Source: Gemmatimonadota bacterium
GTDB taxonomy: Bacteria > Gemmatimonadota > Gemmatimonadetes > Gemmatimonadales > GWC2-71-9
Length of the DNA: 64,000 nt
Reading direction: 5' to 3'
Assembly (NCBI GenBank): GCA_041477065.1
Contig: JBGOUQ010000017.1
Span: 3,669-67,668, forward strand
The notes beneath the pieces were generated by a model. It did not search any database. It saw only the letters and a list, made by a program, of their open reading frames with translations, and was not told the DNA's origin. Shown here piece by piece: positions 320 to 43,690 of the stretch (positions within the stretch are counted from its first letter, which is position 1; each line of letters starts with the position of its first letter). The translations under genes were made by a program, and so were the position numbers.

Positions 320-1497
320 CGGACCTGCCGCCGCCGAGCGGCGAGCGCGACGATGGCCACGGCCGAGCCGCCCAGCAGCAGGGCGAGTAGAGCGGCGCTG
401 GCCGGCGCGGTGGGGCCGAGCGGCAGTCTGGGGACGAACCGCCGCTCCCATCGAGCGGTCCATTCGCCCACCGGCATCTCGAGCGCCGCCGCGAGCGCGG
501 TGTCCACCGGCTCCGGGGAGTTCCAGAACCGGAGGAACCGCTCGCGGCCGACGTCGCGCGCCACGTCCGCGAGGTAGCGCTCGCCGGGCACCAACCCCTG
601 CCGCTGCCACCAGCGGCGCACCGGCGTCACCACCCGAGGGAGGGAATCGTCGAGGTTGCCGCGCATGCCCTCTAGCACCGCCTCCCGGCATCCACTCGGC
701 CTCCCGCCGAGACAGGCCACCGTGGTGGCGGGGAATCCATAGATCGTCTCCCACCACCAGCCCCCGGTGCGAAAGTCCCTCAGCCACCAGAACGCCTGCT
801 GAGATCCTCCCGGTCGAATCCAATCGGGCAACATGGCGAGATCGAAGTTGCGCCGGGCGAGCCAACGGCGGACCGGCTTCCCCGGATTGCCGTAGGCGGC
901 GTAGAAGGCGCACGGCCCCAGGGCCCCCTTGAGCCACTCGCGGAATCGCGGGTCCCGCTCCAGCCGCCGCCTCTGCAGGTTGATCGTCCAGTAACCGGCG
1001 GGGATGAAGACGGCGCACGTCGTCCGGTCGGTGGAATCCGGGAGCAGGTACGACGGATCACCGCCGAGCTGCTCGGCGGGCGCGAGCCGATACGTCCCGG
1101 GCCGCGGCACCGCGAACACCACGACGACTCCCACTTTCGTCGCGCCGAGGCCCACCTGCCGCCAAACGGTATCCATTGCCGCCGTCAACAGCGGGCGTAG
1201 CAGCGACGCGATCGAGTCGGGGCCGTCTACGACGACGGTCGGCAGGTCCTCTGCCATCCGGGAGTCCGGCCATTCGCCGTCATGCGTCGCCCGCAGCAGC
1301 GTCATGGCCGCCTGGGTGGCGCGCCACTGCAAGGCGAGGTCCTGGGCACGCAGCCGCGCCGGTGTCAACTGCGGCACCCGCATACGAAACCGCGACTCGC
1401 GCTCGGTGACCCCGCCCCGCGGGGGTAGATACCCGACCGCGACGATCGCACACGCCCCGAGGGCGACGGCGATCCAGCGTCTCACGCCACGCGCCAT
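316..1497 (-). CDS. hypothetical membrane-anchored protein (Trp-rich; hydrophobic segments at both termini)
   Basis: ORF 316..1614. Preferred start is ATG 1497 (MARGVRRWIAVALGACAIVAVGYL...). C-terminus is ...LPLGPTAPASAALLALLLGGSAVAIVALAARRRQVR. No family recognised. Confidence 0.55.
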   Translation of the reverse strand: MARGVRRWIAVALGACAIVAVGYLPPRGGVTERESRFRMRVPQLTPARLRAQDLALQWRATQAAMTLLRATHDGEWPDSRMAEDLPTVVVDGPDSIASLLRPLLTAAMDTVWRQVGLGATKVGVVVVFAVPRPGTYRLAPAEQLGGDPSYLLPDSTDRTTCAVFIPAGYWTINLQRRRLERDPRFREWLKGALGPCAFYAAYGNPGKPVRRWLARRNFDLAMLPDWIRPGGSQQAFWWLRDFRTGGWWWETIYGFPATTVACLGGRPSGCREAVLEGMRGNLDDSLPRVVTPVRRWWQRQGLVPGERYLADVARDVGRERFLRFWNSPEPVDTALAAALEMPVGEWTARWERRFVPRLPLGPTAPASAALLALLLGGSAVAIVALAARRRQVR

Positions 1498-2549
1498 CGG
1501 GAGCTCCGCAGGCCGCATCCGGCGAAGATCGCCATCCAGCTGAGCGCAACGAAGCACGCCCACAGCGGCATCACCACCGGCGCCGGTCGCGCCGCCAGGA
1601 TCGCCGCGCGCCACCTGGCCACGAGCGAGTCGCGGCCCAACCCCGCCGCGGCCGAGAGGCGCGCTCCGAGCGTCGCGGCGGGATCGGCGAGCAGCCGGCG
1701 GTACGCGTCCCGGCCCCCCAGCCGCAGCGCGAGGTGCACCAGCGTGGCCCGGGCATCGAACCCGAGGGGGCGCGGAAGCGCGCCGCTCGGCAGGGACCGG
1801 AGCAGCCCGGTGCAGGCGGAATCACCGCCCGCGGCGCAGCCACGGTACGCGGCGGCGTTGGCTCCATGGTTGAAGAAGTCGGCGAAGTCCGTCGTAACCA
1901 AGGAGCGTCGCTCGGCGGCGCTCGGATACCACGCTTCCAAAGCGGCCGATCCCTCGAGGTCCAGGGCTGTGGCGCAGCTCGGCACCTGCCCCAGGAAACA
2001 CGCGCGGGCTGCCTGCGACGGGGCCGTGACGAGCTGCACGTACACACCCGAGCGATCCTGCTCCGTGCGGACCGACGGCCGCACCGATCCGCCCAGCCAC
2101 AGCTGGAGGGCCGGGTCGGGCTGGGCGATCGGCACGTTGGAGACGAGCAGCATCGTAAGCGCCGCGGTGCTCATGTTCCAAGGAATCTCCATCCCGACGT
2201 GGAGCACGCCGCGCCGGACATTGGTATCGGGATCGAAGGCGTGGATGATGTACGGGTGCGCGACGAGGTTCGCCGCTGCCGTGCCGTAGAGGCTGTCGAT
2301 GACCGGCCAGGCCCCCTGCGCGGCCTCGCGCAAGGGCAGCGGCGAGGGATTGGCGACGATCCGCAGTGCGCCGACGGCGATCGTGTCCCGCCCCGCACCC
2401 GCGCGCTCGCGCTCCAGGCTGTCCACCAGGTCGGCGATCGCGTTGGCCTGGCGCCACTCGCGGGCGAGGCTGTCGGCGCGGTGGCGCAGGCGGGCGAGGC
2501 CGGTGTCTTGCGGAGCCAGCAGGGCGAGCGCCAACGCGAGGCTAAACAT
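1482..2549 (-). CDS. hypothetical exported protein with C-terminal hydrophobic anchor
   Basis: ORF 1482..2549. N-terminus MFSLALALALLAPQDTG is signal-like. C-terminus is ...VVMPLWACFVALSWMAIFAGCGLRSSRWRVA. 8-nt overlap with the upstream permease stop. No family recognised. Confidence 0.55.
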   Translation of the reverse strand: MFSLALALALLAPQDTGLARLRHRADSLAREWRQANAIADLVDSLERERAGAGRDTIAVGALRIVANPSPLPLREAAQGAWPVIDSLYGTAAANLVAHPYIIHAFDPDTNVRRGVLHVGMEIPWNMSTAALTMLLVSNVPIAQPDPALQLWLGGSVRPSVRTEQDRSGVYVQLVTAPSQAARACFLGQVPSCATALDLEGSAALEAWYPSAAERRSLVTTDFADFFNHGANAAAYRGCAAGGDSACTGLLRSLPSGALPRPLGFDARATLVHLALRLGGRDAYRRLLADPAATLGARLSAAAGLGRDSLVARWRAAILAARPAPVVMPLWACFVALSWMAIFAGCGLRSSRWRVA

Positions 2550-3198
2550 CGACCAGCATCCACCGGCCTGTGAATACCGCGAGGGGACCCGGCCAATTGA
2601 GGATGACCAGCTGCAGCTTGCCCAGCAGGTCCAGCTCGATGTTCGCGACGCTCGCGACGATCTGGACGACGATGATCGCGCCGATCACGCCGAGGATGAT
2701 CCCCGCCGTTCGGGCCGTGCCCGCGGAGACCGCGAAGAACACGGCGTAGGACACGAGCACGGCCATGGCGAACCGCAGCCCGAGCGCGAGGGGGTAGCTC
2801 TGGAGACCGGGCGGAATGGAGGCCATGGAGGTGGCGAGCAAGGCGCCGATGAACACCGCGAGTATCGGCGCGGCGAGCAGGGTCACCCCGCTGCCAAAGC
2901 GCAGCAGGACGTAGTGCCACCGGGGCAGCGGCAGGCTGAGCGCGTGGACGTGCCGGCCGCGATGGTCGGGGGCCCAGGTGGCGATCGCGACCAGCAGGCC
3001 GAGCGCCGCCGCGAGCACGGGATAGAGCGTGCCCCACGACTGCACCGCGCGCAGCAGCTCCTGAGCCTGCAAGGGACTCCGCTCGGCCGACCCCGCGCCT
3101 TGCAGGGAAATGATCGGCAGGGCGAATCCCGCCACCGTGCCGAGCAGGATGATCAACCGCGACCACTTCCACTGGCTGTAGAGTATCGCGCGGAACAT
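2542..3198 (-). CDS. integral membrane permease partner of the ABC ATPase (family not recognised)
   Basis: Within ORF 2542..3507. Start ATG 3198 (MFRAILYSQWKWSRLIILLGTVAGFALP...). Several hydrophobic segments. TGATG junction with the ATPase stop. Confidence 0.6.
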   Translation of the reverse strand: MFRAILYSQWKWSRLIILLGTVAGFALPIISLQGAGSAERSPLQAQELLRAVQSWGTLYPVLAAALGLLVAIATWAPDHRGRHVHALSLPLPRWHYVLLRFGSGVTLLAAPILAVFIGALLATSMASIPPGLQSYPLALGLRFAMAVLVSYAVFFAVSAGTARTAGIILGVIGAIIVVQIVASVANIELDLLGKLQLVILNWPGPLAVFTGRWMLVDV

Positions 3199-4103
3199 CA
3201 GGCCTCCTCGCGTCGCGGTCCCCGGAACGTGCGCAGCAGCTCGACGAAGCCGTCCTCCAGATCCAGATCGATCACGTCCAGCAGCGACGCACCGATGCCG
3301 TCGAACCAGGACGCCATCCGCGGCTCCCAGTCGCGGACGAGCCAGGTTTCGGCGGACCCGTTGGCCGGCTCGCGGCCGAGGACCACGAAAGGCGGCTGGC
3401 CGAGCTGCGCCGGCGCGCCGACGACGCGCAGCCGTTTGGTGCCGTTCTTGAGCTGTTCCATCGGCACCTCGGTGACGAGCCGGCCGTCGTCCATCACCGC
3501 GACCCAATCGCAGATCCGCTCGAGCTCGTGGACCAGGTGGCTCGAGATGAAGACGGTGGCCTTCCGCTGGGAGACGTATTCGAGCAGTGCGGCCAGGATG
3601 TCCCGCCGGACGACGGGATCGAGCCCGTCAGTCGGCTCGTCCAGCACCAGCAGGTCCCCCCGCTGCGCCAGCGCGAGCAGGATCATGAGCTTCGCTTTCT
3701 GGCCCTTGGAGAGCCGCCCGAACAGCCGGTGCTCATCGAGCTGAAACTGCCGCAGCAGCTGCTCCGCCCGGGACCAGTCCCAGGTCGGGTAGAAAGCGGC
3801 CTGGAAGCGCAGCGTCTCGCGCACGGTGAGCGTCGGATCGAGATGCGGCTGCTCGGGGACATAGCCCACGCGGGCGAGGATACGGGCCGCGCCGGCCGGC
3901 ATCCCGGCGCCGAGCACGGTGATGCGACCACGGACGGGCCGGAGGAGGCCGAGCACGAGGCGGATCGTGGTGGTCTTGCCGGAGCCGTTGGGGCCGAGGA
4001 AGCCGTAGATCGACCCGGCGGGGACGTGCAGGTCGAGGTCACCGATCTCGAAGCCCTTCCCCGGGCGGTAGTTCAGGTGCTCGATCTCGATCGCGTAGCT
4101 CAT
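3198..4103 (-). CDS. ABC transporter ATP-binding protein
   Basis: Walker A GPNGSGKTT, signature LSKGQKAK, Walker B LLVLDEPTDGLD. Confidence 0.9.
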   Translation of the reverse strand: MSYAIEIEHLNYRPGKGFEIGDLDLHVPAGSIYGFLGPNGSGKTTTIRLVLGLLRPVRGRITVLGAGMPAGAARILARVGYVPEQPHLDPTLTVRETLRFQAAFYPTWDWSRAEQLLRQFQLDEHRLFGRLSKGQKAKLMILLALAQRGDLLVLDEPTDGLDPVVRRDILAALLEYVSQRKATVFISSHLVHELERICDWVAVMDDGRLVTEVPMEQLKNGTKRLRVVGAPAQLGQPPFVVLGREPANGSAETWLVRDWEPRMASWFDGIGASLLDVIDLDLEDGFVELLRTFRGPRREEA

Positions 4104-7588: not shown

Positions 7589-9363
7589 CACCCGCGGCTC
7601 CAACCCAGGTACTCCGTATGCGCGCAGCCCTCCTAGTGCTCGGCCTCCTCGCCCCGGCCGCGGTGTCGGCGCAAGACACGGCGATCGTCATCCACCCGGA
7701 GAGCGCGGGCGTCCATTTCACACCGCCCGAGCTGCCACGTCTCGTCGCGGAGGAGGCGATTCGCTTCTACAACGCCGCGGCCACGACGCACCTCACGGGC
7801 CGCACCCGGCTGCCGCGCGGCAACGAGTGGCGCGGCGACGTGGCGATCCGCAACGGACCGGCTCTGATCGGCGGCCGCATCCAGGGCTCGCTCCTCGTGA
7901 TCAACGGCGACGCGATCCTCGAGACGGGAGCGGAAATCACCGGTACGGCGCTGGTCGTGGGCGGCGCAATCAGCCGGGCCCCCGGAGCGACCATCGGCGG
8001 CGAAGCGCGGGAGTACCGCGAGCCGCTCACCTACCGGATCACGCTCGACTCGCTCGCCTACGCCCCGGACCTGCGCCGCCGCTTTCGCACCATCGGCGGG
8101 CAGTACGCCTTCGGCTCCGCCGACAGGCGCTCGGCCCTCACCCTGGCGACCGGCGGCACGTTCAACCGGGTCGAGGGGTTGCCGGTGGTGTTCGGCCCGG
8201 TGTTCGAGTGGCGGGTCCGCGACAAAACGCGACTCCGGCTCGACGCCTTGGGCGTCTTCCGGACGGCGGGGGACCTCACCCGCACCCGCAGCGATCTCGG
8301 GTATCTGGTACGCACCGAGCTGCGCCAGGGCGAATCGCGCCCGGTGAGTCTGCGGTTCCGGGCGTTCGACATCATCACTCCCGTGGAAGACTGGGGCTTC
8401 CACGCCGCTGAGGTTGGCTGGGCGGCCTTCCTGTTCCAGCGCGACTACCGCGATTACTACGTGAACAAGGGGATCGCCGGCGGCGTGGTGGCGCAGATCG
8501 AGGCGCCGCTCTCGGTGAGCCTGGAGCTGCGGCGCGAGCGAGAGACGAGCGTCCTGGCGCAGGATCCGTGGACGGTGTTCCGGAACAAGAAGGCCTGGCG
8601 CCCCAACCCACCCGTGGACGACGGGCACTACACCACCCTCGCGGCCGGCGCCACCCTGGACACACGGAACGACAAGGACAACCCGACCTCAGGCTGGTAC
8701 CTGCGTGGCTCGCTCGAGCACGGCAAGAGTCGCGACGTGACGCCGCAGGCCGGCGTGCCGGCGAACGTGCGGGCCCCCATTCCCACCGACGGCTCCTACC
8801 ACTTCCTGCGCGCCTGGCTCGACCTCCGGCGCTACTCGCGCATCAGCTCGGCGGGACGGCTCAACCTGCGTCTCCTGGCCGGCGGCTGGGCCGGGGGCGA
8901 TCCCCTGCCGCTGCAGCGGCGGCTCAGCTTCGGCGGGCCCGACCCGTTGCCGGGGTACGCCTTCCGCCAGGGGGCGTGCAATCAGAGCATCATCGACCCC
9001 GCGTTTGCCGGCTCGCGGCCGGGGGCGTGCGACCGGGTGGTCCTCGCGCAAGTCGAATACCGGGGCCACATCTCGCTCCACTGGACGTACAACCCCTCGC
9101 GCGAGGAAGGCGAGGGGCGCCCGCTCGAGTCGTTGATCCGGCTAGAGGGGCCGGACCTGGTGGTGTTCGGCGACGCGGGTCAGGGTTGGCTCGTGGGCAA
9201 CGGACCCGGTCGGCTGGCGGCCGGGAAGCTGCCGTCGCTGTCAGGCTGGTTGGCGGATCTCGGCCTGGGAGTGGACTGGGGAGGCTTGGGGCTCTACGCG
9301 GCGAAGGCCGTCACGCTGAGTGAGCCGATCCGCTTCGTCCTCCGGCTCGACCACCGCTTCTAG
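7585..9363 (+). CDS. outer-membrane beta-barrel protein with N-terminal bactofilin-like beta-helix segment
   Basis: Signal peptide (MRAALLVLGLLAPAAVSAQ). GDVAIRNGPALIGGRIQGSLLVINGDAILETGAEITGTALVVGGAISRAPGATIGGEA resembles polymer-forming (bactofilin-type) repeats. C-terminal part is Omp85/surface-antigen-like (LVVFGDAGQGW...) and ends in ...FVLRLDHRF. ATGA overlap with the regulator stop. Confidence 0.6.
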   Translation: MTPAAPTQVLRMRAALLVLGLLAPAAVSAQDTAIVIHPESAGVHFTPPELPRLVAEEAIRFYNAAATTHLTGRTRLPRGNEWRGDVAIRNGPALIGGRIQGSLLVINGDAILETGAEITGTALVVGGAISRAPGATIGGEAREYREPLTYRITLDSLAYAPDLRRRFRTIGGQYAFGSADRRSALTLATGGTFNRVEGLPVVFGPVFEWRVRDKTRLRLDALGVFRTAGDLTRTRSDLGYLVRTELRQGESRPVSLRFRAFDIITPVEDWGFHAAEVGWAAFLFQRDYRDYYVNKGIAGGVVAQIEAPLSVSLELRRERETSVLAQDPWTVFRNKKAWRPNPPVDDGHYTTLAAGATLDTRNDKDNPTSGWYLRGSLEHGKSRDVTPQAGVPANVRAPIPTDGSYHFLRAWLDLRRYSRISSAGRLNLRLLAGGWAGGDPLPLQRRLSFGGPDPLPGYAFRQGACNQSIIDPAFAGSRPGACDRVVLAQVEYRGHISLHWTYNPSREEGEGRPLESLIRLEGPDLVVFGDAGQGWLVGNGPGRLAAGKLPSLSGWLADLGLGVDWGGLGLYAAKAVTLSEPIRFVLRLDHRF

Positions 9364-14220: not shown

Positions 14221-15408
14221 CTATTTATGCAGCCTGTGGACGATCCGGCCGGAGACGGCGGTCAGGACGGCGGCGGATGGGCGGATCGGCGGGTAGGCGG
14301 ATAGTACAGTGAGATCGGCCGCCTTCCCCACTTCCAGGGAGCCGATCTCCGCCTCCCACCTGAGAGCCCGGGCTCCCTCGATGGTCAGCATCCGCAGGGC
14401 GTCCTCCCCCCGAAATCCCGCCGCCTCGGCCTCGGCCCAGAGATCGAGCGGCCCGACGCTCACCACCGAGTCGGTGCCCAGCCCCACGCCGATTCCCGCC
14501 GCCCGCAGCGCCGCCAGCGGTGCCGCGCCGTGACCGTGTGCCCGGTTGGAGCGCGGGCAGTGGGCGATCGTCGCCCCCGCCCGGGCCAGGATGGCGATGT
14601 CTGCCTCGCTCACCTGCACGCAATGCACGCACAGGCAACCGGACGCCACGACCCCGAGTCGTGCGAGATGCTCGACGGGGCTGCAGTGCAGCGGCTGCAC
14701 GGCGATGCCCCGGCCGCGCAGCGCCTCGGCGAACGGTCCGGTTCCCTCCCGCACGAATTCCGACTCCTCCCGCGACTCGGCGAGGTGCGCCGCCACCGGA
14801 AGCGCCGCCCGGCGCGCGTACTCGACCACGGCGCTGTACAGCGCGCTGCTGACGGTGTACGGCGCGTGCGGCGAGACGCCGAGGCGCACCTGGGGCGAGA
14901 CCAAGCGGCGCAGCCGCGCGACCGCCGCCTCGAGCTCGGCCATGCTCGACTCGAGGTGCGCGGGGTCGGGCCCGAATACTTCCTGGTACACGACGCCCCG
15001 CCCGCCGAGCCGGGCGAGCGCTTCCATCACCGCTCCGGTGCTCCCGGTCTCCGCGACGCAGGTCACGCCAGCGGCCCACCCCTCCCGGATCCCCTGCTCC
15101 GCCGCACGGTCGAACCCCTCCGGCGGCGTGGCATCCTTGAGCTGGCGCACGCGCCGGATCCAGCGCGGGAACTCCCGCTCCGCGTTCTGCCCGGCGAGAT
15201 GCGTCAGCTCGAGGTGCGTGTGGCAATTCACCAGTCCCGGCACGAGGTGGGCGCTGGGGAACTCGAGCGTCGTCGTACCGGGGGGCGCGGGAACGTGGGA
15301 GTGCGGGCCGACGGCGGCGATGCGACCATCGTCACCAACGAGAACGGCGCCATCGGAGATCGGTGGCGCCGTGACGGGGTGCACCGAGCCGGCGCGGATG
15401 CGCAGCAT
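14221..15408 (-). CDS. amidohydrolase family protein (chlorohydrolase / aminodeoxyfutalosine-deaminase-like)
   Basis: Within ORF 14221..16236. ATG 15408 (MLRIRAGSVHPV...). Metal motif LVNCHTHLELT; later HCVQV and GTDS. Confidence 0.8.
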   Translation of the reverse strand: MLRIRAGSVHPVTAPPISDGAVLVGDDGRIAAVGPHSHVPAPPGTTTLEFPSAHLVPGLVNCHTHLELTHLAGQNAEREFPRWIRRVRQLKDATPPEGFDRAAEQGIREGWAAGVTCVAETGSTGAVMEALARLGGRGVVYQEVFGPDPAHLESSMAELEAAVARLRRLVSPQVRLGVSPHAPYTVSSALYSAVVEYARRAALPVAAHLAESREESEFVREGTGPFAEALRGRGIAVQPLHCSPVEHLARLGVVASGCLCVHCVQVSEADIAILARAGATIAHCPRSNRAHGHGAAPLAALRAAGIGVGLGTDSVVSVGPLDLWAEAEAAGFRGEDALRMLTIEGARALRWEAEIGSLEVGKAADLTVLSAYPPIRPSAAVLTAVSGRIVHRLHK

Positions 15409-40327: not shown

Positions 40328-41355
40328 CCCGCGCCGAGATCACCACGCCGGAGGTTCTCCCCGAGGAGCGCGTGACGGACGCGGCGCTCCGGCCCTCGCG
40401 GCTCGACGAGTTCGTCGGCCAGGCCAAGGTCAAGGAGTCTCTCCAGATCGCGATCGACGCCGCCAAGCAGCGCCGCGAGCCGCTCGACCACGCGCTGTTC
40501 TTCGGGCCGCCCGGTCTCGGCAAGACAACGCTCGCGCTCCTCATGGCCCACGAGATGGGGGTGAACATCCGCATCACCTCCGGTCCGGTGCTGGAGCGCC
40601 CGGGGGACCTCGTCGGCATGCTGACGGCGCTCACGGCGGGAGATATTCTCTTCATCGACGAAGTCCACCGCCTGCGACCGGTGCTCGAGGAATTCCTCTA
40701 CCCAGCCATGGAGGAGTTCCGGGTGGACGTTCGGATCGCGGACGGCCCGCACGCGCAGACGATCCCGATGCCGCTCGAGCGCTTCACGCTCATCGGCGCC
40801 ACGACGCGCTTCGGCCTGCTGACCCCGCCGATGCGCGCCCGGTTCGGCCTGGTGGAGCGGCTGTCCTACTACCCGCCCGACGACCTCGCCCAGATCATCA
40901 CGCGCTCAGCCAAGATCCTCGGCGTCAGCGCCGACGCGGCGGGAGTGGCGGAGATCGCCCGGCGCAGCCGCGGCACGCCGCGCGTCGCCAACCGGCTGCT
41001 GAAGCGCGTGCGCGACTACGCCCAGGTGCGCGCCAGCGGCAGCATCACCGGTGCGGTCGCCGTGGAGGCGCTGAAGCGCCTCGACGTGGACGAGTTCGGG
41101 CTCGACGACATGGACGGCCGCATCCTGAAGACCATCATCGAGCAATTCGACGGCGGCCCGGTGGGGCTCAGCACCGTGGCGGCCGCGGTCGGCGAGGACG
41201 CCGGGACGCTGGAAGAGGTGTACGAGCCGTTTCTGATGCAGCAGGGCTTCCTCGCCCGCACGGCGCGGGGGCGCTGCGCGACGGCCTCGGCATATCGCCA
41301 CTTCGGCTTCACGCCGCCGAAGCGCGCCGAGCAGCCGAACATCTTCGACGGGTGA
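40324..41355 (+). CDS. ruvB: Holliday junction DNA helicase RuvB
   Basis: ATG 40324. [39 protein letters not shown]. Confidence 0.95.
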
Positions 41356-41361
41356 CCAAAC

Positions 41362-41435
41362 TGCGGATTGTGGATTGTGGATTGCGGATTTGAGGGTGGA
41401 GCGTCCAATCCGCAACCCGCAATCCGAAATCCGCA
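41362..41435. repeat. heptamer-built palindromic element (4 x TGYGGAT, 18-nt spacer, 4 x inverted ATCCGMA-type)
   Basis: Direct reading: tgcggat tgtggat tgtggat tgcggat ...18 nt... atccgca acccgca atccgaa atccgca. It fills the ruvB-queA gap. Confidence 0.85.
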
Positions 41436-41444
41436 ATCTGCTCC

Positions 41445-42470
41445 ATGCGCCTCTCCGACTTCGACTACCCTCTCCCCCCCGAGCGGATCGCCCAAGTGCC
41501 GCTCCCCGACCGCGCCGCCAGCCGCCTGCTCGTGCTGGAACGATCCACGGGCGCGTTGCGGCACCTGCAATTCGCCAACCTCCCCGAGCTCATCGCACCG
41601 GGCGACGCCCTCGTCCTCAACGCCTCGCGCGTGATCCCCGCGCGCCTGCGCGGCCAGCGCGAGCTGGGCGCCCCCGCCGAGCTGCTCCTATTGAAGGAAG
41701 GAGCGGACGGTGATTGGCTCGCCCTGGGGCACCCGGGCGGCAAGCTCAAGCCGGGGCGCCGGATCACCATCGGACCTGAAAGCGTGGTGGAGATCGTTGG
41801 GGTGCTGGGCGGCGGGGTGCGCCGGGTGCGCTTCGTCGGGAATCTGGACGCCCGCGCCACGATCGCCCGCTACGGCGAGGTGCCCCTGCCGCCGTACATT
41901 CACCGCCGCCCCGACGACGCGGACCGGGAGCGCTACCAGACGGTGTATGCCGAGCATGAGGGCAGCGTCGCGGCGCCGACGGCGGGGCTGCATTTCACGA
42001 CGGCGCTGCTCGATCGGCTCGTCGCCATGGGCGTCGCGGTGGCGCGGCTCGACCTCCACGTGGGACTCGGCACCTTCAAGCCGGTGGTGGTCGAGGACGT
42101 GGAACGGCACGTGATGCATCCGGAGTCGTACGCGGTGAGTGAGGAGGCGGCGACGGCGATCAACGCGCGCCGCGCGGCGGGCGGGAAGGTCTGGGCGGTG
42201 GGGACGACGGTTGCCCGCACCCTCGAAACCGTCGCCGACGCCGCCGGGCGCGTGCGTGCCGGCGCGGGTGAAACGAGCCTGTTCATCCGGCCGCCCTACA
42301 CTTTCCGCGCCGTGGACCGGCTGATCACGAACTTCCACCTGCCGCGCTCGACGCTGCTGATGCTGGCGTGCGCCTTCGGCGGTTACGAGCGGGTGATGGG
42401 AGCGTATCAGGAGGCGGTGGCGCAGGGGTACAGGTTCTACTCGTATGGCGATGCGATGGCGATCGTCTGA
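41445..42470 (+). CDS. queA: S-adenosylmethionine:tRNA ribosyltransferase-isomerase
   Basis: MRLSDFDYPLPPERIAQ...SRLLV; PLPPYI; TNFHLPRSTLLML. Confidence 0.95.
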   Translation: MRLSDFDYPLPPERIAQVPLPDRAASRLLVLERSTGALRHLQFANLPELIAPGDALVLNASRVIPARLRGQRELGAPAELLLLKEGADGDWLALGHPGGKLKPGRRITIGPESVVEIVGVLGGGVRRVRFVGNLDARATIARYGEVPLPPYIHRRPDDADRERYQTVYAEHEGSVAAPTAGLHFTTALLDRLVAMGVAVARLDLHVGLGTFKPVVVEDVERHVMHPESYAVSEEAATAINARRAAGGKVWAVGTTVARTLETVADAAGRVRAGAGETSLFIRPPYTFRAVDRLITNFHLPRSTLLMLACAFGGYERVMGAYQEAVAQGYRFYSYGDAMAIV

Positions 42471-42506
42471 ATGCGGAATGCGGAGTGCGGAATGCGGAAT
42501 GGAAGA
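42469..42506. repeat. direct array of about 5 heptamers (TGCGGAA/TGCGGAG), same family as 41362-41435
   Basis: Reads tGAatgcg gaatgcg gagtgcg gaatgcg gaatgga. It begins inside the queA stop codon and ends 6 nt before the tgt ATG. Confidence 0.8.
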
Positions 42507-42511
42507 CGCCG

Positions 42512-43690
42512 ATGTTCGAGTTTACCGTAGAGTCGACCAGCGGTCCAGCCCGCGCCGGCCTGCTCACCCTGCCGCACGGCACCGTCGAGACGCCGGTGTT
42601 CATGCCCGTCGGAACGCAGGGCACGGTGCGCGCGCTCTCCCCGAACGACTTACGCGCCGTGGGCGCGAGCCTCGTGCTCGCCAACACCTACCACCTGCAC
42701 GTCCGCCCGGGCGAGGATGTCGTCGCCAAGCTCGGCGGCCTGCACCGCTTCATGGGGTGGGACCGCCCGCTGCTCACGGACTCGGGCGGATTCCAGGTGT
42801 TTTCGCTCGAGGGGTTCCGGCGCGTGGACGAGGACGGTGTCGAGTTCCAGAGCCACGTGGACGGGGCGCGCCGTCGCCTCACACCGGAGCGCGCCACCGA
42901 GATCCAATGGACGCTCGGCGCGGACGTGGCGATGGCGTTCGACCACGTACCGCCCGGCGGGGTGGAAGAGCCCGCGGCCCGTGACGCACTGGAGCGCACG
43001 TTACGCTGGCTGGAGCGGTGCGAGCGGAAGCATCGGGAACTGGCGGAAGGAGGGAAGGTTGGAAGGTCCGAAGGTACCTTCGCACCTTCCGACCTTCCCT
43101 CCTTCTCCCAGACTCTCTGGCCCATCCTTCAAGGCGGCACTCACCTCGGCCTCCGGCTGGAGGGCCTGCGGCGCATCCTGGACCTGGGCGACTGGACCGG
43201 CCTGGCCATCGGCGGGCTCTCGGTCGGAGAGCCCAAGCCGGCGATGTATGCCACGCTCGAAGCGCTCGCGCCCCGGCTGCCGGCGGCCCTTCCCCGTTAT
43301 CTTATGGGCGTGGGGTTCCCCGAGGACCTCGTGGCGGCGGTAGAGCGTGGAGTGGATCTGTTCGACTGCGTGGCCCCCACGCGCAACGGCCGTAACGGCA
43401 CGGCGTTCACGCCAGACGGCCCCGTGAACATCCGCAACGCGTCGCACCGTGAGGACCCGCGCCCCCTCGATGCCGGCTGTGATTGCGAGACGTGCACCAC
43501 GTTTTCGCGCGGCTATCTGCGGCATCTGTTCATGGCCGGGGAGCTGTTGGGGCTGCGGCTGCTGTCGCTGCACAACGTCCGGTACCTCATCCGGCTCGCC
43601 GCGCAGATGCGTGCGGCGATCGGCGCGGACGACTTCTCGCGGTGGGCCGCCGACTGGCGCCGCCGCTACACTCAACCGGGATCACCATGA
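42512..43690 (+). CDS. tgt: queuine tRNA-ribosyltransferase
   Basis: ATG 42512 (MFEFTVESTSGPARAGLLTLPHGTVETPVFMPVGTQGTV). LTDSGGFQVFS, YLMGVGFPEDL, CDCETC. Contains an in-frame 20-codon palindromic insert. Confidence 0.95.
   Translation: MFEFTVESTSGPARAGLLTLPHGTVETPVFMPVGTQGTVRALSPNDLRAVGASLVLANTYHLHVRPGEDVVAKLGGLHRFMGWDRPLLTDSGGFQVFSLEGFRRVDEDGVEFQSHVDGARRRLTPERATEIQWTLGADVAMAFDHVPPGGVEEPAARDALERTLRWLERCERKHRELAEGGKVGRSEGTFAPSDLPSFSQTLWPILQGGTHLGLRLEGLRRILDLGDWTGLAIGGLSVGEPKPAMYATLEALAPRLPAALPRYLMGVGFPEDLVAAVERGVDLFDCVAPTRNGRNGTAFTPDGPVNIRNASHREDPRPLDAGCDCETCTTFSRGYLRHLFMAGELLGLRLLSLHNVRYLIRLAAQMRAAIGADDFSRWAADWRRRYTQPGSP
43046..43105. repeat. 60-nt near-perfect palindrome inside the tgt CDS, built of 8-nt units (GGAAGGNN x4 and inverted x4; full 8-unit repeat block spans 43045-43108)
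   Basis: Positions 43046-43075 are complementary to 43105-43076 at 28/30 positions, centred on GGTACC. The block starts on a codon boundary and encodes EGGKVGRSEGTFAPSDLPSF. Confidence 0.9.

Follow-up and report, generated by a model that had tools for sequence, protein, structure and literature searches.

The tgt palindrome and its host gene

We analysed a stretch of 64,000 nucleotides (nt) from a soil bacterium of the Gemmatimonadales, phylum Gemmatimonadota (assembly GCA_041477065.1, contig JBGOUQ010000017.1), here called the window, in which a long palindrome built of 8-nt units lies in frame inside tgt, the gene for queuine tRNA-ribosyltransferase (Tgt). Upstream of tgt lie ruvB and queA, with repeats in both intervening spacers, which we refer to as spacer A (ruvB-queA) and spacer B (queA-tgt) (Table 1). 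The tgt stop codon overlaps the yajC start codon (ATGA at 43687-43690), and def and fmt come after yajC. Because the stop and start codons overlap, tgt is probably translationally coupled to yajC. Comparison with related loci reveals that the palindrome represents a single allele of a repeat hotspot that changes quickly and occupies the same site in many relatives.

Table 1. Repeat features of the window, and 8-nt units found at the tgt site in the window and in related loci (L numbers). ORF, open reading frame.
Feature	Position	Strand	Description
Full palindrome	43040..43111		Inside tgt; 24 codons, LAEGGKVGRSEGTFAPSDLPSFSQ; no spacer
Left arm	43045..43076	+	Four tandem 8-nt units: GGAAGGAG GGAAGGTT GGAAGGTC CGAAGGTA
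Right arm	43075..43106	+	Four inverted 8-nt units: TACCTTCG CACCTTCC GACCTTCC CTCCTTCT
tgt	42512..43690	+	Queuine tRNA-ribosyltransferase; 392 aa, ATG at 42512; identical to database protein P0001
Gene context	41354..43690	+	ruvB stop, spacer-A hairpin, queA (41445-42470), spacer-B array, tgt
Spacer-A hairpin (ruvB-queA)	41354..41443		GGATTGY x4, 10-16-nt loop, GCAATCC-type x4.7; 7-nt units
Spacer-B array (queA-tgt)	42467..42501	+	GAATGCG x4.7; direct (left) array only
8-nt array GGCGGATN x4	14272..14304	-	In frame, C-terminal part of amidohydrolase-like ORF
tgt unit GGAAGGNN			Window, L161-L163
tgt unit GGACGGAA			L063; 27/27 paired
tgt units GGACGGTC/GGACAGTC			L009, L016
tgt unit GGACGGGC			L094, L095, L114, L136
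tgt units CACGACGC and TACGACGC			L001 and many others
tgt unit GCACGTCG			L019
tgt unit GGGTAAGC			L068
tgt unit GGTTAGGC			L143
tgt unit GACGGAAG			L081, L108, L157

PF01702 is listed for the tgt product, which matches the solved Zymomonas mobilis Tgt structures over residues 2-387 (E = 6.6e-114) and whose homologues carry the names Gemmatimonadetes or Gemmatimonadales. It aligns at TDSGGFQV, AFD, QGG, GGL.VGE, DLFDCV and the zinc motif C.C..C...H, all of which are intact. Relative to the Z. mobilis structures, the window protein has 17 extra residues exactly at the insert, and the gap in the alignment just precedes the strand with the QQG substrate-pocket motif at its end. This agrees with the original prediction, made from the sequence alone, of a palindrome inserted into Tgt without loss of frame. 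The protein is otherwise conserved and apparently intact, and the linker at this point is short in solved Tgt structures. The insert starts on a codon boundary at 43046 and spans 20 codons (43046-43105, peptide EGGKVGRSEGTFAPSDLPSF), as had been described. A gain of 20 codons was an overestimate, as the window linker measures 27 aa and that of 'empty' relatives 9-12 aa, a net gain of 15-18.

The position of the insert in the protein is based on the alignment to solved Tgt structures and on general triosephosphate isomerase (TIM) barrel geometry. An AlphaFold2 model from a 31-sequence alignment was poor (mean predicted local distance difference test score, pLDDT, of 46), and only its order of secondary-structure elements was used. 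In this model, the insert (residues 181-200, pLDDT <50) falls between a long helix (153-180) and a strand (201-206). Helix-to-strand loops of a (beta/alpha)8 barrel face away from the catalytic side. The insert is translated as a low-complexity loop with predicted disorder, which we infer to lie on the non-catalytic face.

The tgt palindrome is the top-ranked inverted repeat of the window. The hairpin upstream of queA aside, the next inverted repeats are 20-26 nt long with 71-81% complementarity. The palindrome was larger than first noted: our inverted-repeat scan delimited 72 nt, with 36-nt arms (43040-43075 and 43076-43111) that are 89% complementary. Within it, the 30-nt arms of the previously described core (43046-43075 and 43076-43105) pair at 28 of 30 positions around a GGTACC centre (43073-43078), exactly as reported, with mismatches at 43060/43091 (T.G) and 43068/43083 (C.C). 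The outermost pairs of the full stem are formed by conserved Leu (CTG) and Gln (CAG) codons. Tandem Repeats Finder assigned a period of 8 to both arms (4.0 and 3.8 copies), so that each arm consists of four 8-nt GGAAGGNN units. The number of units thus stands as first described, with the register of the arms shifted by one base; in the corrected register, the two unit arrays share 2 nt at the centre.

As RNA, the palindrome has a minimum free energy of -62.9 kcal/mol (z = -8.9), which none of 200 shuffled sequences equalled; as DNA, the value is -31.7 kcal/mol (z = -6.9). No U-tract follows the stem in the window sequence. Searches of Rfam at gathering thresholds gave no matches for the window or three relatives, and sub-threshold matches were dismissed as generic microRNA-precursor hairpins that appeared on both strands. 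The same DNA is present in a metagenome-assembled genome (MAG) at NCBI (GCA_041491145.1) and in a Joint Genome Institute (JGI) metagenome record, and the protein occurs on 10 contigs. The identity of the NCBI and JGI records means that the palindrome is not a one-off assembly error.

A hypervariable linker in related Tgt proteins

We aligned 120 close Tgt proteins and, at the DNA level, read 160 related loci taken from genomes and metagenomes. These loci were recovered by protein similarity, which is biased against frameshifted copies. The alignment placed the insert in a hypervariable linker between ..RH.EL and QTLWPI.QG, whose length (7-39 aa) has two modes, 9-12 and 27-33 aa. The long linkers fold as hairpins whose arms are tandem 8-nt units, and the period at the tgt site is always 8. 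More than 100 other assemblies, produced by different projects, contain equivalent hairpins, in some cases on contigs of 0.1-0.6 Mb (L068, L077). Across about 150 Gemmatimonadales loci, the unit sequences are unrelated between alleles (Table 1). In most types, the stem runs from the conserved Leu codon (CTG/TTG) to the conserved Gln codon (CAG/CAA), so that the hairpin makes up the entire unconstrained linker and nothing beyond it.

All of the approximately 150 recovered tgt alleles are in frame, and the peptides that they encode in the insert are not conserved. No frameshifted allele was present among the recovered loci; initial failures of the motif search turned out to be in-frame motif variants. 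In the hairpin of L143 (2943-3014; GGATAGTC GGTTAGGC GGTCAGGC GGTTAGC), the sole unit that would give an in-frame TAG carries CAG at that point, which leaves a visible trace of stop-codon avoidance. As all alleles are in frame and CAG replaces TAG in L143, translation through the insert is clearly maintained.

Incomplete and minimal forms of the hairpin also occur. One arm or a piece of the hairpin is left in L004, L105, L129, L144, L147, L029 and L030, and we interpret the one-arm forms among these (L004, L105, L129, L144 and L147) as deletion scars. Some short linkers are themselves small palindromes, namely CTGGCG-GACGGG-CGCCAG in L142, a 7-bp stem in L146 and an 11-bp stem in L133. The 8-mer GCGGACGG, which encodes Ala-Asp-Gly, has one copy in the short allele L142 and four in L094, L095, L114 and L136. 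These copy numbers suggest local duplication, with a deletion scar as the alternative. The deeper-branching Gemmatimonadales (L038-L062, L073-L080) have a plain 12-aa tgt linker and almost no arrays of 7- or 8-nt units, and the propensity to form arrays is therefore lineage-specific.

Symmetry between arms and exchange between genomes

The two arms of the hairpins are matched unit by unit. In 27 octamer hairpins, with units compared as complements, the identity of facing units was 0.88, that of units in the same arm 0.80 and that of units not facing each other 0.78; for the window hairpin these values were 0.92 versus 0.71/0.75. As facing units are the most complementary, the symmetry is position-specific. 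Among 18 aligned CACGACGC-type alleles, pairing held for 89% of cells and 17 cells were compensatory, which none of 500 shuffles matched. In the same alignment, G->A changes at columns 73/81 mirror C->T changes at columns 19/27/35, which are 8 nt apart. Units and arms have changed in concert.

On the sense strand, the mismatches in these stems show no preference for G.U pairs. The first tgt set contained 5 G:T and 8 A:C mismatches, and all 8-nt hairpins together contained 17 G:T, 20 A:C and 57 others. The spacer hairpins have a weak asymmetry of 48 G.U versus 32 A.C. The absence of a G.U preference at tgt points to DNA-level symmetry or a very recent origin, rather than to classic RNA compensatory evolution.

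Cassettes at the tgt site turn over fast and are replaced. A quick neighbour-joining tree built from 146 Tgt cores shows the insert types mixed with one another, and closely related genomes carry different cassettes. L094 (GGACGGGC) and L128 (CACGACGC) have different cassette types and only a single tgt difference outside the tract from -34 to +3. Over 3.4 kb, L095 (90-nt hairpin) shares 98.4% identity with L103/L004, in which a one-arm remnant of 39 nt is left, and identity is about 95% between L136 (81-nt linker) and L142 (27-nt linker). The intermixed types and these cassette differences rule out strictly vertical evolution in situ. Small clusters of single-nucleotide polymorphisms (SNPs) lie directly upstream of replaced cassettes, which would fit short-tract homologous recombination between coexisting alleles. 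As near-identical genomes carry different cassettes, the tgt hairpin is interchangeable and dispensable within a species-level population, which argues against an essential or sequence-specific role at tgt.

Repeat arrays outside tgt

Next, we looked at where else such repeats are found. Tandem GGAAGGNN (at least two units) was absent outside tgt from the window and 81 related loci (1.29 Mb), and was found only in the tgt genes of the window and L063. The other tgt units were also absent outside tgt in the 1.29 Mb of these 81 loci, bar loose two-unit matches to GGACGGNN in L020, L057 and L065. The tgt element has no target-site duplication, as its flanks, CTGGCG and TCCCAG, are inverted and no direct repeat borders it. 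Both of its ends lack the GTAG/CGTC tag of repetitive extragenic palindromic (REP) elements, and no transposase was seen beside the tgt locus, for which no search aimed at transposases was made. With its units confined to tgt and no target-site duplication or tag, the palindrome lacks the defining features of Rickettsia palindromic elements (RPEs), transposable elements of the miniature inverted-repeat type (MITEs) and REPs. The original prediction had proposed a dispersed mobile element like the RPEs, and this part of it found no support: GGAAGGNN was confined to tgt in the DNA sampled, a target-site duplication is missing, the stem enters the Leu and Gln codons and the period is fixed at 8. 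The original prediction was to be given up if the palindrome proved unique in the genome, without an element family; in the window and about 1.7 Mb of related loci, this holds for the sequence family, but not for the architectural class, which is common in the clade.

The spacers on either side of queA contain hairpins of this class. The spacer-A hairpin of the window (fold z = -5.1) had been matched to the tgt palindrome in architecture, and both indeed consist of direct units followed by their inverse; the unit length differs, at 7 nt in the spacer and 8 nt in tgt. Where spacer B of the window has one array only, relatives have a full 78-nt hairpin, and L161 lacks the spacer altogether, its queA stop codon overlapping the start of tgt. 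Both the presence and the completeness of the spacer hairpin are therefore polymorphic. The hairpins flanking queA are stereotyped over large divergence, each 78 nt in total, with arms of roughly 31 nt around a loop of roughly 16 nt. Their units are GGATTGC, GGAATGC, GGAACGC or GGAGTGC (window; L162 1405-1510, L163 1405-1510). Spacers A and B of one genome usually share the same unit, and the unit differs between genomes. The non-complementary variants GGATTGT, CCGAAAT and CCACAAT recur at fixed positions.

We took a census of tandem arrays in 1.72 Mb of tgt-centred related loci, with triplet-shuffled sequence as the null. Arrays of period 7 were found 338 times versus 23 in the null (15-fold) and those of period 8 141 times versus 2 (70-fold), whereas periods 6 and 9 showed no excess in these 1.72 Mb. 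Heptamer hairpins were non-coding in 68 of 70 classifiable cases, nearly all in the two spacers flanking queA, whereas 26 of 36 octamer hairpins were coding, 25 in tgt and one in valS. Loops in the census ranged from 0 to 47 nt and arms from 14 to 35 nt.

Other genes contain in-frame arrays as well. The N-terminal loop of queA is an insertion hot spot for 8-nt hairpins or arrays (L064 8960-9130, L071 8381-8447 and others); the unit inserted in queA of L064 is the same as that in its tgt, and the loop in L071 contains GGCCGGAC x8.4. A second queA loop is a hot spot for direct in-frame arrays that add 7 aa as three heptamers, e.g., RDAGSGMRGSGGK (L012 8045-8069). The valS (valyl-tRNA synthetase) hairpin with 8-nt units in L023 (3105-3175, in the minus-strand ORF 1352-4102; GGGCGTCC) is in frame, has 29-nt arms and a 13-nt loop and encodes ...EPGRPDAQTAGRPKEHGGRPGVRASGRR.... 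In rsmB (sun), two in-frame heptamer arrays about 220 nt apart are mutual reverse complements (L001 14995-15026 and 15244-15269). They change unit together between genomes (GGGAAAC, GGGAAGC, GGGATGC, GGGGAGC, GGGGGAC), and their median complementarity score is 15 within a genome versus 6 between genomes. In L030, both rsmB arrays (7718-7760 and 7937-8010) consist of CCGGCTC in direct orientation, so that identity is kept and complementarity lost, which fits poorly with a function in RNA pairing alone. The window rsmB has degenerate traces only, at about 47453 and 47678. Elsewhere in the window, an amidohydrolase-like ORF contains a GGCGGATN array (Table 1), whose unit (CTRTCCGY on the other strand) recurs in relatives as an array in frame within a thiE-like gene (L012 12086-12120, L013 13131-13165, L005 4573-4606).

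Origin and maintenance of the palindrome

With moderate confidence, we propose that the tgt palindrome is a locus-bound 'palindromic microsatellite' with fast birth-and-death turnover, and that it is neither a transposable element nor a dedicated functional RNA. Arrays of 7-8-nt units would arise and lengthen by replication slippage, and some units may derive from resident codons, as GCGGACGG would. Complementarity of the arms could be made or kept by intrastrand template switching, as in quasipalindromes, where template switching is an established mechanism (PMC7202029, PMC3820800). Long palindromes would be removed again by deletion, and alleles may spread between lineages through short-tract homologous recombination. 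Selection would act mainly as a filter, retaining alleles whose total length is divisible by 3, which lack in-frame stops and which sit where the protein tolerates them.

Several points weigh against this scenario. All of its mutational steps are deduced and none was directly observed. The direction of change at tgt is ambiguous, as a short linker with a single unit could be either a seed or a scar. Recurrent insertion would result in a similar mixing of types on the neighbour-joining tree, although we favour recombination. Two sites of one genome share a unit in L064 (queA and tgt), in spacers A and B and in the rsmB arrays 220 nt apart; transfer between sites is therefore needed, which goes beyond simple slippage. 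The stereotyped hairpins flanking queA look selected, and the class may thus have a function. The scenario does not account for the exclusive use of period 8 in coding hairpins and of period 7 in spacers. Finally, the sample of about 1.7 Mb is centred on tgt.

Selection for a nucleic-acid hairpin, either in the queA-tgt-yajC messenger RNA (mRNA) or as extruded DNA, is possible but doubtful. Such a hairpin could act in mRNA processing or stabilisation, in transcriptional or translational pausing or in the binding of a clade-specific protein, and selection would then maintain the complementarity. The very stable fold (z = -8.9), compensatory changes above those in shuffles and the high complementarity of facing units are in line with this, as are the 78-nt hairpins on both sides of queA in many genomes and the co-variation of the rsmB arrays (15 versus 6), which together form the main support. 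Hairpins of short tandemly repeated repetitive (STRR) sequences have been proposed to act on transcript stability or translational coupling (PMC2670836). However, the mismatches are not enriched in G.U pairs, no U-tract follows the stem and no Rfam family was found. The tgt hairpin is moreover swapped or dispensed with among genomes of about 98% identity and missing in many lineages, the geometry of the hairpins varies (loops of 0-47 nt, arms of 14-35 nt) and the L030 rsmB arrays are direct rather than inverted.

A broader idea, which we put forward only tentatively and think unlikely, takes in partner arrays that co-vary over distances of 220 nt to 1.5 kb, the exchange of cassettes between near-identical genomes and the fixed sites in the queA spacers, tgt, queA, valS and rsmB. 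A clade of Gemmatimonadales from soil might possess an undescribed, possibly enzyme- or function-driven system that makes and maintains complementary 7-8-nt arrays at many fixed sites. The tgt palindrome would then be the most compact member of a new structured and translated class with a role at the nucleic-acid level.

We consider it improbable that a mobile palindromic mini-element (similar to RPEs, MITEs, REPs or short dispersed repeats, SDRs) repeatedly inserted into a small native palindrome, site-specifically, in tgt and at other permissive sites. Different family members would explain the different units, and the small CTGGCG...CGCCAG palindrome in many short linkers is a possible target. 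Presence/absence polymorphism at tgt and spacer B (as in L161, which lacks the spacer-B hairpin), whole-cassette differences between near-identical genomes, insert types that are not monophyletic and the occurrence of one unit at two sites of a genome (queA and tgt of L064; spacers A and B) are also as expected, and in-frame RPE insertions provide a precedent (PMC10969869). Yet the tgt units were not found elsewhere in the DNA of relatives that we examined, and neither a target-site duplication nor a GTAG/CGTC REP tag (PMC3733652) is present. The stem is continuous with conserved flanking codons, the period of 8 is invariant at the site and the unit GCGGACGG matches resident codons. SNPs cluster upstream in the replaced tracts, as homologous recombination predicts.

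A phase-variable contingency locus, in which slipped-strand frameshifts at the 8-nt repeats switch tgt on and off, is very unlikely. With a unit length not divisible by 3, one unit gained or lost would shift the frame, and tgt is dispensable in model bacteria. Phase variation by heptamer and other simple sequence repeats is well known (PMC4679880, PMC12721329). However, every recovered allele is in frame, although recovery by protein similarity disfavours frameshifted copies. The units are few (3-4 per arm) and imperfect, their inverted layout is not known as a feature of contingency loci and tgt is, by its overlap with yajC, probably coupled to it in translation. An assembly or sequencing artefact in the form of a chimeric fold-back has a negligible chance: amplification or assembly errors can produce perfect palindromes with zero spacer, but the MAG and JGI records are identical, the protein is on 10 contigs, more than 100 assemblies have equivalents and the frame is kept.

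Comparison with known repeat systems and implications

Of the known kinds, the closest are cyanobacterial STRR hairpins and, as regards the effect on the protein, the RPEs; in that effect the tgt element also resembles Borg tandem repeats. Cyanobacterial STRR heptamers are 7-bp tandem units that form hairpins between cistrons such as hupS-hupL, with a proposed effect on transcript stability or translational coupling (PMC2670836). The spacer-A hairpin of the window, with its intercistronic position and 7-nt units, is very similar in kind. It differs in its Gemmatimonadota host and in the spacer units GGATTGC/GGAATGC/GGAACGC. The cyanobacterial STRR units reportedly have other sequences than these. 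The tgt element differs further, as it has a period of 8 and is coding and translated, whereas spacers A and B do have 7-nt units. We know of no report of STRRs with 8-nt units that are translated inside coding sequence.

RPEs are about 150 bp long and form ten dispersed families, with 44 copies in R. conorii and a conserved peptide per family (PMC10969869). Like the tgt element, they are palindromic DNA in frame within housekeeping ORFs, translated, compatible with function and polymorphic in presence (PMC10969869). In contrast, the tgt element is 60-72 nt long, consists of 8-nt tandem units, is restricted to one locus and has no conserved peptide, and its sequence varies between alleles. From MITEs it differs by its inverted flanks and lack of a target-site duplication. 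REPs are extragenic, 20-40 bp long and high-copy, bear GTAG or CGTC as a tag and have a link to REP-associated tyrosine transposases (PMC3733652, PMC3116915). REPs, bacterial interspersed mosaic elements (BIMEs) and REP doublets forming hairpins (REPINs) resemble the tgt palindrome in being short imperfect palindromes with genome-specific sequences, and REPs often lie in operon spacers. Unlike REPs and REPINs, the tgt palindrome is intragenic, 72 nt long and without a tag or high copy number. Integron attC sites, retrons, diversity-generating retroelements and clustered regularly interspaced short palindromic repeats (CRISPR) were dropped as candidates, as the genes belong to the core set and keep their synteny, an R''/R' core is missing and associated genes were not seen.

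In prokaryotes, long simple sequence repeats (LSSRs), tandem repeats with 5-11-nt units, are in excess in particular lineages; heptamers are the most common class, and slippage is their proposed origin (Mrazek et al. 2007, as cited in PMC4679880). The 15-fold (7-nt) and 70-fold (8-nt) excess in the clade fits this account as it is cited there. According to the summary in PMC4679880, the units likeliest to fall within coding regions are those with a length divisible by three; here, units of other lengths are paired with their inverse and stay in frame inside genes. Template switching at quasipalindromes perfects imperfect inverted repeats and predicts strand-symmetric DNA complementarity free of G.U, as in the tgt hairpins (PMC7202029, PMC3820800). 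It is known for point and cluster mutations in laboratory reporters, not for long-lived hairpins within genes, and its role here is putative. Borgs have fast-evolving, locally born tandem repeats within ORFs that add low-complexity disordered segments; those repeats are direct and the Borgs are archaeal extrachromosomal elements (PMC9879509).

The tgt element stands apart from all of these systems, as it is a non-triplet inverted array, in frame, at one locus and with many unrelated alleles. As the original prediction had supposed, our literature searches found no prior description of such repeat hairpins for Gemmatimonadota. If our reading is true, a very strong hairpin (about -60 kcal/mol) is born, reshaped and lost inside genes of essential pathways, while the protein carries a disordered loop. 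The approximately 150 alleles would form a natural series for studying the interplay of slippage with palindrome 'correction', the tolerance of long palindromes and the filtering of non-triplet repeats by reading frame. The series would also illustrate how mutational hotspots add low-complexity segments to conserved enzymes. It would extend STRR-like repeat hairpins to a poorly studied phylum. For genome annotation, it should be noted that length variants of Gemmatimonadales tgt, queA, valS and rsmB are real and not frameshift errors.

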